Assembly (NCBI GenBank): GCA_965215005.1
Contig: CBDCCZ010000003.1
Coordinates: forward strand, 128,001 to 192,000
Direction: 5' to 3'
DNA length: 64,000 bases
DNA from: Kofleriaceae bacterium
Lineage (GTDB): Bacteria; Myxococcota_A; Polyangia; Haliangiales; Haliangiaceae
Below, piece by piece: positions 3,220-37,461 of this stretch; position 1 is the stretch's first letter, and each line of letters starts with the position of its first letter. Position numbers and translations under genes: made by a program. The notes beneath the pieces were generated by a model. The model made no database searches, was not told where the DNA came from, and saw only the letters and a program-made list of their open reading frames with translations.

Positions 3220-4614
3220 TTAACCCGCCTCTTGTGCCTTGACGATTTCGAGGATGGCGCTCTTCGCATCGCCAAACAACATCAAGGTGTTGGGCGCGGC
3301 GAAAAGTGGGTTGGGAATGCCGGCAAAGCCGGGACTGAGTGAGCGTTTGATGACAACCACCGTTTGTGCCTTGTCGACATCGATGATCGGCATTCCGGCA
3401 ATGGGGCTCGTAGGATCCTCGCGAGCTGCGGGATTGACGACATCGTTGGCACCAAGCACGATCGCAACATCGACCTGCGCGAAGGTGGGGTTGATGTCCT
3501 CCATCTCGATGAGTCGCTCATACGGGACATCCGCCTCCGCCAGGAGCACGTTCATGTGCCCCGGCATCCGTCCCGCCACCGGATGAATTGCAAACTCGAC
3601 CTCCACACCGCGCGCGGTGAGCGCATTCATCAAGTCCCGCACCGCGTGCTGTGCCTGCGCCACCGCCATGCCGTATCCGGGGACGAACACCACCCGCTGG
3701 GCACCTTCCAAGATCAGCGCAACCTCGTCGGAGGTGGTCGACTTGACCTTGCCTGCATAGACATCATCAGCGCTGGGTCCGTCACTGCTGACGTCGCCGA
3801 GCGCAAACAAGACGTTGGTGAGCGAGCGATTCATCGCTTTGCACATGATGGAGGTGAGAATCAGCCCCGAAGCGCCAACCAGCGACCCAGAAATGATGAG
3901 CGCGGTGTTCATCAGCGCGAACCCGGCGGCGGCGGCCGCCAGCCCCGAGTACGAGTTGAGGAGCGCGATGACCACCGGCATATCGGCGCCACCGATGGGC
4001 GCGACCAACGTCACTCCGAGCACCGCGGACACCACGACCAACGCCCAGAACAACGCCAGCGACGGCGCGCTCACCATGGCAACGCACAATGCAATTGCCG
4101 CTAGCGCCAAGACTGCATTCAATACGCGCAGCGCCGAAGATCGCACGGCGCCGCCACCTACCAGCTCTTGAAGCTTGGCGAACGCGAGCACGCTGCCGGT
4201 GAACGTGACGGTGCCGATGAGTGCTGCGAGCGCGATCGTTATCGACTCCGCAGCGTGATCTCCGACCGCCATCCGTGCGAACGCCGGCGCAGCAACCACG
4301 TACTGCGACGCGGCAACGAGCGCCGAGGCAATGCCACCAAAGCCATTGAAGACCGCCACCAGCTGCGGCATTGCGGTCATCTGGACGCGCACAGCAAGCA
4401 CCAGCCCGAGGGCTGTGCCCAATGCCAGACCTATCGCCAAGCTCCCGTAGCCGAGAATCCGCTGATCCACCAACACGGCGAGCACCGCCAACAACATGCC
4501 GATGCCGGCAATGATGTTGCCCCGGGGTGCGGTTCGCGGGTGCGATAGTCCCTTGAGGCCGACGATGAACATGATCGCCGAAACCAGATATGCCAGCTGA
4601 ATCGCGGCGCTCAT
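3220..4614 (-). CDS. pntB: NAD(P) transhydrogenase subunit beta
   Basis: MTAMPQLVA, IGGADMPVVIALLNSYSG, VPGYGMAVAQAQH and HPVAGRMPGHMNVLLAEA motifs. Confidence 0.98.
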   Translation of the reverse strand: MSAAIQLAYLVSAIMFIVGLKGLSHPRTAPRGNIIAGIGMLLAVLAVLVDQRILGYGSLAIGLALGTALGLVLAVRVQMTAMPQLVAVFNGFGGIASALVAASQYVVAAPAFARMAVGDHAAESITIALAALIGTVTFTGSVLAFAKLQELVGGGAVRSSALRVLNAVLALAAIALCVAMVSAPSLALFWALVVVSAVLGVTLVAPIGGADMPVVIALLNSYSGLAAAAAGFALMNTALIISGSLVGASGLILTSIMCKAMNRSLTNVLFALGDVSSDGPSADDVYAGKVKSTTSDEVALILEGAQRVVFVPGYGMAVAQAQHAVRDLMNALTARGVEVEFAIHPVAGRMPGHMNVLLAEADVPYERLIEMEDINPTFAQVDVAIVLGANDVVNPAAREDPTSPIAGMPIIDVDKAQTVVVIKRSLSPGFAGIPNPLFAAPNTLMLFGDAKSAILEIVKAQEAG

Positions 4615-26575: not shown

Positions 26576-27301
26576 ATGCCGAACGCCAGCCGCATGCTCT
26601 TCGCTCATGTCGTCGACCGCGACGACGAAGACATCGAGCTCGACGTCGCTGCGCTGCTGGTAGCGGAGTGGGAGTATGAGCGACTCGAGGTTGCTCATTA
26701 CGTCGACCAGCTGGATCGCTTCTCGGAGTCGGTCGAGAAGATTTTGCGCGATCTGGGCAATGTCCGGTTTGGACCCGTGCGAGCCATCAATCGGGTCCTG
26801 TTCCGTGAGCTCGGCTTTCGCGGCAATCAAGACGACTACTACGATCCGCGCAACAGTTTCCTCAACGAGGTAATCGACCGCCGCACAGGGATTCCCATAA
26901 GTCTGTCTATTCTGTACATGGAAGTAGCCCGCCGTGTCGACATCCCCATCGAGGGTGTTGCCTTCCCCGGCCACTTCCTCGTCCGTTATGACGAAGACGA
27001 CGACTCGCTCATCATCGATCCGTTTCGCATGGGTCTCACGATGGACCGCGATGATCTCCAGTCGCTGCTCCGACGAGTGGAGGGACAGGAGGCAACGCTG
27101 TCCCCGGAGCATCTGCAACCGGTCAGCAAGAAGTCGCTACTGATGCGACTCTTGACCAATCTCGCAGCGATCTACAGCAAGCACCGCGACGCGCTCCGCT
27201 CCGTCGAGGTGCTCGAGCGCATGCGCATTCTCGACCCGCAGAACAGCCGCGTGGAACGCGCGCTGAGCCGGCTGCGCGCGCAAGCCATTGAAGTCAACTG
27301 A
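26576..27301 (+). CDS. SirB1-type transglutaminase-like protein with TPR
   Basis: GFRGNQDDYYDPRNSFLNEVIDRRTGIPISLS, FPGHFLV and IDPF motifs. Confidence 0.92.
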   Translation: MPNASRMLFAHVVDRDDEDIELDVAALLVAEWEYERLEVAHYVDQLDRFSESVEKILRDLGNVRFGPVRAINRVLFRELGFRGNQDDYYDPRNSFLNEVIDRRTGIPISLSILYMEVARRVDIPIEGVAFPGHFLVRYDEDDDSLIIDPFRMGLTMDRDDLQSLLRRVEGQEATLSPEHLQPVSKKSLLMRLLTNLAAIYSKHRDALRSVEVLERMRILDPQNSRVERALSRLRAQAIEVN

Positions 27302-27343
27302 GGCCGCGTGTGAGCGAGGCCAACGGAGCTCCCTCCAGAGGCA

Positions 27344-27715
27344 TTACTCCAGCTGCAAGCCACAATCGGCGCACGCACCCATGACCAGCGGTGCTGCGTG
27401 GCCACACGCCGGGCACGGCGGCTCGTCGCTTCCGCTTGCAACCGCGGGCGCGGGCGCGGCAGTGCCCTCCGCTGCAACCATAGCGGCCCACTCGGCCTGC
27501 AACAGCCTTGCAACGCGCTCAACATCTGCCTCCTGGACCAGGAGGACGGCTTTGGTGCCTCAGCCCTTGCCGCTGCCGGCAGGCGCCGCGGCCGCGGCGG
27601 CTACATCCGCAGCGAGACAGCGGTCTACGAGCTCTTTGATGTAAGCGAGCGAGCCCTGCACACAGGGAACGGCGCCGGATTCTTCGAGAAGCGCGGCAGC
27701 GGTCTTGGCGTCCAT
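27344..27715 (-). CDS. Candidate selenoprotein (123 aa, UGA at codon 52) with C-terminal zinc ribbon
   Basis: MDAKTAAALLEESGAVPCVQGSLAYIKELVDRCLAADVAAAAAAPAGSGKG-UGA-GTKAVLLVQEADVERVARLLQAEWAAMVAAEGT...PPCPACGHAAPLVMGACADCGLQLE-TAA. The frame stays open and protein-like past the UGA at 27560-27562, and a hairpin follows it. Confidence 0.72.
27523..27548 (-). promoter_or_regulatory. SECIS-like stem-loop
   Basis: mRNA reads UGA-GGCACCAAAGC-CGUC-CUCCUG-GUC-CAGGAG-GCA-GAUG; the stem starts 11 nt after UGA and the apical loop starts with G. Confidence 0.65.
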
Positions 27716-27781
27716 CCCGCCATTGTAATGGACTTCGGCAGCAAACGCAGTAGAGTCGCCGACCGACGAGAGTATCTGTTT

Positions 27782-29374
<1,593 letters not shown>

Positions 29375-36477: not shown

Positions 36478-37461
36478 ATGCTGCCAGCGGAGATCGCAGA
36501 GCAGGTCAAGCGCGTCCAGCTGCAGACCGGACGCCACGTCGCCGACGTGCTCGCCGGTCACTATCTATCGGTGTTCAAAGGCCGCGGCATGGAGTTCGAC
36601 GAGGTGCGCCCGTACGTTCCCGGGGATGACGTTCGCACCATCGACTGGAACGTCACGGCGCGCATGGGCGAGCCCTATATCAAGCGGTATGTCGAAGAGC
36701 GCGAGCTCACGGTCATGTTGCTGGTCGACGTCTCCGCCTCGCTCGACTTTGGCTCGGCGCGCCGCTCCAAACGCGAGGCCGCGGTCGAGCTGTCGGCGTT
36801 GCTGGCGTTCTCGGCAATCCACAACCACGACAAGGTCGGGTTGCTCTTGTTCCACGGTGCCGCCGAAGAATACATTCCGCCACGCAGCGGCCAAAAACAC
36901 GCTCTCCGGGTGATTCGCGAGGTTTTAGCTCGCGGCCGTGAAGACGCCCCCGCGCCTCCGCAGCGGCGTTTCAACCCGTTTGGCTTGCCGCGCGAGATCC
37001 TGTCGCGGTTTCGCCAACTCAAGGCGCAGTCGCGGCGTGAGCCGCGGCGGGCTACCAATATCGCCCATGCGTTGGATTTCTGCCGGCGCGTGCTGCCGCG
37101 TCGAACCGTGCTGTTCTTGATTAGCGACTTTTTGGACGACGGCTATCTCGACATCCTGCGCAGCGCCAATCGCCGCCACGACGTGGTCTCGGTGCTAGTG
37201 ACCGATGAGCGCGAGCTAGCGATGCCAGGCGCTGGACTCATCACGTTAGAAGACGCCGAGTCGGGCTCGACACGGCTCATCGACTCGCAGTCGAGCGAGT
37301 TTCGCCAGGCGCTTGCAGCGGGAGCCAGCGCACGCATCGAAGGGCTCGCGAGCAGCCTGCGCGCCTCGCGCGTCGACATGATGCGCATCGACGCCACGCG
37401 TCCCACCATCGACCCACTGCTCGAGTTCTTTCGCATGCGAGAAAAGAGGCTGCGCCGGTGA
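36478..37461 (+). CDS. DUF58 domain protein
   Basis: FKGRGMEFDEVRPY.PGDDVRTIDWNVTAR, EERELT and ISDF motifs. Confidence 0.95.
   Translation: MLPAEIAEQVKRVQLQTGRHVADVLAGHYLSVFKGRGMEFDEVRPYVPGDDVRTIDWNVTARMGEPYIKRYVEERELTVMLLVDVSASLDFGSARRSKREAAVELSALLAFSAIHNHDKVGLLLFHGAAEEYIPPRSGQKHALRVIREVLARGREDAPAPPQRRFNPFGLPREILSRFRQLKAQSRREPRRATNIAHALDFCRRVLPRRTVLFLISDFLDDGYLDILRSANRRHDVVSVLVTDERELAMPGAGLITLEDAESGSTRLIDSQSSEFRQALAAGASARIEGLASSLRASRVDMMRIDATRPTIDPLLEFFRMREKRLRR

Follow-up and report, generated by a model that had tools for sequence, protein, structure and literature searches.

Among the described selenoproteins, the one to which the gene treated here compares most closely is hypothetical protein DG, which was described in 2025 by Xiao and Zhang with deep-Sep (PMC12013277). 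The selenoprotein table of a 2026 review credits it to deep-Sep and lists it as 'Hypothetical protein DG, NF049953, motif GUxG' (PMC13188914). As the supplement displays it (file 4, row 10), DG carries selenocysteine (Sec, U) in a K-G-U-G-G-P context before an L-x-L-V-V strand and has an extra N-terminal CPxC...CxxC ribbon (PMC12013277). The bacterial selenocysteine insertion sequence (SECIS), in the bSECISearch model as quoted in the Fig. 2 legend of PMC13188914, has a loop of 3-9 nucleotides (nt), an upper stem of 4-16 base pairs (bp), a G in loop position 1 or 2 that is mostly followed by G or U, a distance of 16-37 nt from UGA to loop and a minimum free energy (MFE) of -7.5 kcal/mol or lower. 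Here we analyse a 64,000-nt stretch of DNA from a Kofleriaceae bacterium (assembly GCA_965215005.1, contig CBDCCZ010000003.1, positions 128,001 to 192,000; hereafter the window), and in it a minus-strand reading frame at 27715-27344 with an in-frame UGA at codon 52.

In this study, we conclude with a probability of about 92% that this frame genuinely decodes Sec and is the gene of a 123-residue selenoprotein. Gene integrity, the pairing of Sec forms with cysteine (Cys) forms, the conservation of a hairpin past the UGA and the presence of the Sec machinery are directly supported. A preliminary description of the window, made from the letters, had proposed that the UGA encodes Sec in a small protein of no described selenoprotein family. 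The first part of this proposal is borne out by the Cys/Sec pairing, the conserved hairpin, the Sec machinery and the fit to the bacterial SECIS model; in place of the second stands a distant, shorter relative of DG (NF049953) with Sec at the same site. The locus adds a well-supported selenoprotein to the Kofleriaceae/Haliangiales-type Myxococcota, and it gives the DG family a second architecture and takes it into a further phylum, with 62 Sec-type loci.

Reading frame, homologues and relation to protein DG

The frame opens with ATG at 27715-27713 and closes with TAA at 27346-27344, and its sole interruption is a TGA at codon 52 (27562-27560). Translation confirmed what had been reported of it: the start at 27715, the UGA in the context GSGKG-U-GTKAVLLV, 71 further codons up to the zinc-ribbon end CPAC...CADC and the TAA, 123 residues in total. 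Codon-position GC is 0.77/0.58/0.72 in both halves of the frame, which fits coding sequence and is non-discriminating here. The gene and its parts, with the evidence for each in brackets, are these:

27344..27715, minus strand: coding sequence of the 123-residue predicted selenoprotein, Sec-UGA at codon 52 (translation, full-length homologues, orthologous loci)
27560..27562, minus strand: in-frame UGA, read here as selenocysteine U52 (aligned Cys in homologues, TGA/TGC/TGT in related loci)
27528..27547, minus strand: predicted SECIS hairpin (folds, conservation in TGA loci, covariation, frozen synonymous sites)
27467..27676, minus strand: predicted N-terminal alpha/beta domain, residues about 14-83 (AlphaFold2 model, weak fold matches)
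27359..27415, minus strand: C-terminal zinc ribbon C101-P-A-C104-G...C115-A-D-C118-G (invariant Cys, weak Pfam zinc-ribbon matches, C-terminal end of NF049953)

Searched against protein databases, the read-through product returned 29 homologues of 86-147 amino acids (aa) (E 3e-14 to 2.4e-27, up to 100% query cover), among them proteins of Haliangium sp. and Pyxidicoccus fallax. They begin at the same Met as the window protein. The column of U52 is invariant Cys in all 29, never Trp or Gly, and the four Cys of the ribbon, W76 and E83 are likewise invariant in this alignment. When 41 related genomes, counting that of the window, were searched with the profile, 27 matches proved full-length; exactly one in-frame TGA interrupts 18 of these, and the other 9 are uninterrupted. 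A scan of one genome per species added 240 more relatives; we kept the top 80, which bear the names Kofleriaceae, Haliangiales, Myxococcales, Myxococcus, Pyxidicoccus and Archangium. Together these make 107 loci (27 + 80), 100 of which could be parsed (the others being L032, L038, L072, L080, L096, L116 and L121) and 89 of which are unique. The equivalent of codon 52 is TGA in 62 unique loci, namely the window and 61 others, TGC in 23 and TGT in 4. Both kinds of homologue to which the preliminary description had looked for a check, those with Cys and those with a conserved UGA plus hairpin at this position, were thus found. Directly 3' of the UGA, Gly is kept in 58 and Thr in 53 of the 59 distinct TGA rows, with four codons in use for each; such conservation despite varied codons is the signature of translation running past the UGA. 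What the deep-Sep text sets out for a Cys/Sec pair (PMC12013277), Cys homologues, TGA homologues in Sec users and the machinery, is all present here.

If the TGA were a true stop, the locus would be a pseudogene, or it would yield a 51-aa product and a C-terminal zinc-ribbon peptide from the internal TTG 27502. A 52-aa open reading frame (ORF) from this TTG does stand in the ORF list, and similar C-terminal pieces are called as proteins in the databases. In an exhaustive profile search, 422 of 1.84 billion representatives matched with E up to 1e-3, 130 with E up to 1e-10 and 27 with E up to 1e-30; of the 150 representatives listed, about 23 are pieces 52-71 aa long that align solely past the Sec column, and four 'shorter' database matches (43-63 aa) are all C-terminal halves from an internal Met. 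Truncation by gene callers, expected from the outset, is what these halves called from internal starts display. Against a stop codon, 62 unique loci of many genera share the TGA at this position, which is incompatible with decay, and G-T-K after the TGA, which lies upstream of any internal start, is conserved with synonymous variation. Moreover, the Cys-type homologues are single proteins from one gene, not two separate genes as the description had named among possible refutations, and the hairpin accompanies the TGA and not the Cys codons. We regard a true stop as very unlikely.

The TGA could also be a sequencing or assembly error for TGC or TGT in the gene of an ordinary Cys protein. Two Logan contigs, a separate assembly of reads, agree with the window without a difference over 27250-27850 and have the same TGA, as a check in the reads had been advised. 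Their depths are low (2 and 4.2). Both derive from a single sample, in all likelihood the one that gave the window, and they are not independent of its sequence; no RNA run is listed as containing the region. Independent assemblies, however, have the TGA at the same codon in 61 other unique loci, and the hairpin of the window is perfect (7/7 pairs), unlike that of most Cys loci. An error of this kind is exceedingly improbable.

Against the NCBIfam profile NF049953, 'zinc ribbon-containing (seleno)protein DG', residues 9-122 of the window protein match positions 53-171 of 172 (E 3.3e-14); two relatives with Cys reach 71.8 bits (P0004) and 55.5 bits (P0021). Pfam gave weak zinc-ribbon matches as its sole result on the window protein. 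Among 301 genomes of the phylum, 52 match NF049953 at E 1e-8 or better and none reaches its cut-off (best 126 bits). The same phylum also has long DG-like forms of about 170 aa, which score 89-126 bits and possess the N-terminal CPxC...CxxC; in a joint alignment, six of them have Cys (five) or Ser (L056) in the U52 column. The C-terminal CPxC...CxxCG ribbon is invariant both in the homologue alignment and in this joint alignment.

Compared with DG as far as its published entry goes, the window protein has the same K-G-U-G Sec loop before a hydrophobic strand and the same CPAC...CxxCG ribbon (PMC12013277). Since DG has its Sec in a K-G-U-G context and the window protein in K-G-U-G-T-K-A-V-L-L-V, the two Sec sites are taken as homologous. 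Both have Sec-type and Cys-type members, and the function of either is unassigned. The window form differs from DG in being shorter, in lacking the N-terminal ribbon and in scoring below the cut-off; it occurs in Myxococcota (metagenome-assembled genomes (MAGs) of Kofleriaceae/Haliangiales type), whereas the DG entry is from Desulfosediminicola. By sequence comparison, the window protein is thus placed as a short, single-ribbon sister group of DG outside the reach of the NCBI model. The curated NCBIfam cut-off misses the whole short-form clade, and therefore public proteomes hold only truncated C-terminal pieces. We found no paper describing a short DG form; it is absent from the main text on BSepDB, whose underlying data may contain entries. 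Nor did a literature search find a published selenoprotein of such kind for Kofleriaceae/Haliangiales-type Myxococcota.

The surroundings of the Sec site vary among relatives. Many Sec forms have a Cys eight residues before Sec (G-C-P-P-G-A-G-K-G-U), which the window protein lacks, and in L088 (about 4148-4153) a Cys codon just before the Sec codon makes a C-U dipeptide (S-R-C-U-G-T-K). Cys forms often show C-x4-C or C-C-G...C-G-C around the equivalent site.

Hairpin, selenocysteine machinery and weighing of the reading

The hairpin past the UGA reads CCUCCUG / GUC / CAGGAGG, with its arms at 27545-27539 and 27535-27529 and its loop at 27538-27536. The preliminary description had the stem and the GUC loop right and the start wrong: the perfect 7-bp core begins 14 nt past the UGA, not 11, and an extra G-C pair (27547/27528), set off by the bulged U 27546, begins 12 nt past it. 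The 14-nt spacer and the 7-nt 5' arm add up to a UGA-to-loop distance of 21 nt. Taken together with the 3-nt GUC loop, the 7-bp stem and an MFE of -11.0 kcal/mol over 25 nt, this places the hairpin within all four parts of the bacterial SECIS model as given in PMC13188914. A stem-loop within the coding sequence, just past the UGA, with a small apical G-U loop is common to that model, to Escherichia coli fdhF-type elements and to the window hairpin; the latter differs in its very short stem (7-8 bp) and 3-nt loop, which is 5 nt in GAG variants. An Rfam scan of 27300-27800 with E up to 10 gave four chance-level matches and no SECIS family. The G-G-U-C run on top of the window hairpin presumably resembles the fdhF loop.

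Comparison between loci ties the hairpin to the TGA. All seven stem pairs form in 36 of the 62 TGA loci and six of seven in the other 26, while the 27 Cys loci form four pairs (14 loci), three (5), five (4), two (2) or six (2). Over the 25-nt segment the mean MFE is -10.7 kcal/mol in TGA loci versus -5.1 in Cys loci. In the 59 distinct TGA rows, 93.7% of the cells are paired versus 45-64% with the partners slid by 1-3 columns, and both sides have changed in three of the seven stem pairs. At the outer pair, 50 rows have C-G, 3 have G-C, 2 have U-A, 2 have U-G and 1 has G-U; a single C-G to U-A change is seen at pair 5, and pair 7 is G-C 31 times and C-G 3 times. The observed covariation score was not reached in any of 500 shuffles, a count that is not a probability because the rows are relatives; the controls with slid partners agree with it, as does the difference between TGA and Cys loci. 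Synonymous sites add a signal that is independent of this. Third codon positions within the stem have an entropy of 0-0.71 bits (all 59 rows use CTC for Leu and GAG for Glu), and those outside it 1.2-1.9 bits, a Leu seven codons onward using five codons. The G-U of the loop (columns 25-26) is invariant in all 59.

The window genome has the means to decode Sec. Profile searches found selA (541 bits), selB (313) and selD (300), all over their curated cut-offs, and a tRNA-Sec with anticodon tca lies on contig C49. The Sec machinery, for which a search had been advised, is therewith present, and of the 18 genomes that carry the TGA form, 16 have a selA over its cut-off. The selD of the window genome is a fusion of 748 aa (L010 1384-3630, minus strand, contig C11). 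Its SelD part has a Cys-type active site, S-R-C-G-G-C-G-S-K, and its N-terminal 400 aa or so look, from their glycine-rich start, like a pyridine-nucleotide-disulfide oxidoreductase.

Several results weigh against a Sec-decoding gene. The 41-nt fold around the hairpin has an MFE of -15.2 kcal/mol and a z-score of -2.05, with 6 of 200 shuffles folding equally well; in a 91-nt context the z-score is -0.68, and a loose scan of the GC-rich 6.2-Mb genome for a TGA combined with a G-U-loop hairpin and an open frame turned up 191 cases besides this one. Alone, the hairpin pattern is only modestly better than chance, and because of the modest z-score, the shuffles and these 191 cases the sequence by itself leaves the matter undecided; it is the comparative evidence that makes the pattern more than chance. 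The hairpin overlaps the conserved peptide LLV[EQ]E, so part of its conservation is at the protein level. Two MAGs that have the TGA form, G020 (82% complete) and G012 (91% complete), yielded no selA. No further selenoprotein gene was found in the window genome: a search for Sec-type FdhA (TIGR01553) gave no match over the cut-off and no TGA, and the 14 of the 191 scan candidates with the best codon-position GC pattern (L144-L157) gave no Pfam match. These 14 look like antisense frames, which the filter cannot separate from sense ones. Finally, the match to NF049953 scores 53.2 bits for the protein and 49.5 for the genome against a cut-off of 130, and it begins at profile position 53 or 46, the N-terminal ribbon (about 1-45) being missing. 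Owing to this low score and the missing ribbon, annotation pipelines miss the gene.

A ribosome might also pass the UGA by other means than Sec, with a near-cognate tRNA inserting Trp or Cys or under a reassigned code, while the hairpin slows ribosomes or reflects the LLVxE peptide. It agrees with this proposal that part of the hairpin encodes conserved peptide, and incorporation of selenium at UGA-52 is itself something that we infer. A reassigned code is not the explanation, because TGA is an ordinary stop in the adjoining SirB1-like gene. The homologous residue, moreover, is always Cys and never Trp or Gly, the full Sec machinery is present, the G-U of the loop is invariant throughout the distinct TGA rows while the stem covaries, and a published DG relative, as its entry stands, has Sec at the same site (PMC12013277). 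Read-through of this kind we hold to be highly improbable.

On the reading as a Sec-decoding gene, UGA codon 52 would be recoded to Sec by the SECIS hairpin within the coding sequence, to which SelB with Sec-tRNA(Sec) would be expected to bind.

Evolution, fold and possible function

A quick, unrooted maximum-likelihood tree was made of 89 rows and 121 columns, a length at which many forks stay unresolved. On this tree the Sec/Cys label needs at least 5 changes, 3 of them forced by well-supported branches, as against about 23 with shuffled labels. Sec forms fill a clade of Kofleriaceae/Haliangiales type; in Myxococcaceae and Archangiaceae the form is the Cys one. Two Cys rows, L023 and L140, are nested among Sec rows and retain remnants of the hairpin, which suggests that they are Sec-to-Cys reversions, a direction that we infer since the tree is unrooted. 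With its 7-bp stem, G-U loop, covariation and reversions with remnants, the clade offers an unusually clear natural series for the study of a minimal SECIS.

MAG contigs labelled Amaricoccus sp. and 'uncultured Rickettsiales' also bear the gene (L093, L080 and L129). L093 and L129 have the Sec-type gene and are placed among Myxococcota rows in the tree, and L080 is one of the unparsed loci; all three contigs are probably mis-binned.

The AlphaFold2 model, built from a 30-row alignment, has a mean pLDDT of 86.4. It consists of a helix (3-13), a strand (16-22), a helix (23-35), two strands (40-43 and 55-60) and a helix (62-83), followed by a linker and the zinc ribbon at lower confidence. Sec52 lies in the glycine-rich beta2-beta3 loop, residues 44-54 (G-K-G-U-G-T-K), a place which we take to be the T-loop position of PII proteins. 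In VIA-align, 2hfv, the structure compared for DUF2007 (Z 5.1, rmsd 4.2 over 64 residues), and the PII-like 1o51 (Z 4.0) fall in the range of common arrangements. An Atlas query with the Cys homologue P0004 gave DUF2007 clusters (feature scores 0.85-0.90, TM 0.49-0.55), and among the nearest was a cluster named 'DG family'. DUF2007 (PF09413) matches weakly in 2 of 13 members of the joint alignment (best E 0.025), and the window protein has no Pfam match to it at E up to 10. The window model has the same order of secondary structure elements as DUF2007 ('putative prokaryotic signal transducing protein') and PII-like domains, and PrgK/EscJ motifs outscore both against it. The alpha/beta domain may, on the model, be DUF2007/PII-like.

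Against a functional reading, the fold matches are weak. Foldseek against the PDB gave no match at E 1e-3 or better. The best VIA-align match, the PrgK/EscJ ring-building motif (Z 6.6-7.3), is in the range of common small arrangements. The gene neighbours give no clear functional clue: besides prfC, clustering of the neighbours at the 89 unique loci found that only Ser/Thr kinases and a polysaccharide deacetylase recur, both common in Myxococcota.

In a small family with no assigned function, Sec at the most conserved site marks the likely active centre. From the placement of the conserved Cys and Sec, we tentatively suggest, as one possibility well short of even odds, that the protein could act in the cytoplasm as a small adaptor responsive to redox state or metals. 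Its reactivity would then centre on the exposed Sec, possibly aided by Cys33, a nearly invariant residue that ends helix 1; the zinc ribbon could serve as a structural or docking module.

A doubtful further idea, which we consider a long shot, puts Sec at the tip of the beta2-beta3 loop, the T-loop position, of a PII/DUF2007-like signalling fold and makes the protein a selenium-based redox or ligand switch instead of an enzyme, with the persistent adjacency to prfC, in two orientations, as a functional tie between UGA recoding and termination. The protein, or read-through of its UGA, might then report the balance between SelB and release factor. Autoregulation of prfB by an in-frame UGA is a loose parallel. 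Against it, the prfC of relatives has its own promoter-like box and a spacer of 9-3209 nt, and the Cys forms of Myxococcaceae do not stand beside prfC.

Neighbouring genes and minor observations

From the end of the SirB1-like gene (27301, plus strand) to the ATG of prfC (27782, plus strand) the gap is 480 nt, of which 42 and 66 nt lie outside the 123-codon frame. The two neighbours are:

27782..29374, plus strand: prfC (RF3), divergent neighbour (ORF, tblastn synteny)
26576..27301, plus strand: SirB1-like gene, convergent neighbour, ending in TGA as a stop (ORF)

prfC adjoins the orthologue in 36 of the 89 unique loci, co-directional and downstream in 33 (the spacer range given above refers to these) and divergent in 3, the window included. 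The SirB1-like gene is adjacent in only 4 of the 89. Flank lengths vary from locus to locus, and a neighbour not seen there need not be absent.

That the gene might be a translationally coupled leader of prfC was considered and rejected, the copy in the window being divergent and relatives having a promoter-like box in the spacer. Where prfC lies downstream in relatives, the spacer ends in a conserved box ...GTAGATTGCGCCGTC-ATG (L064, L067, L068, L071, L082, L106, L108, L138 and others). It has a TAGATT hexamer about 8 nt before the start codon and often TTGCG about 17 nt further upstream. From its sequence the box looks like a promoter, so near to the start that it would leave the prfC mRNA with little or no leader.

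In the window itself, a promoter and terminator scan of 27150-27950 found nothing and no intrinsic terminator. The SirB1-like gene and the selenoprotein gene end tail to tail, and the 42 nt that separate their stops (27302-27343) contain the palindrome GGAGCTCC, without a T-run. Elsewhere in the window, ARAGORN called a 79-nt tRNA-Phe with the unusual anticodon AAA at 36883-36961 (minus strand), which could be a miscall or else an odd tRNA-like element.

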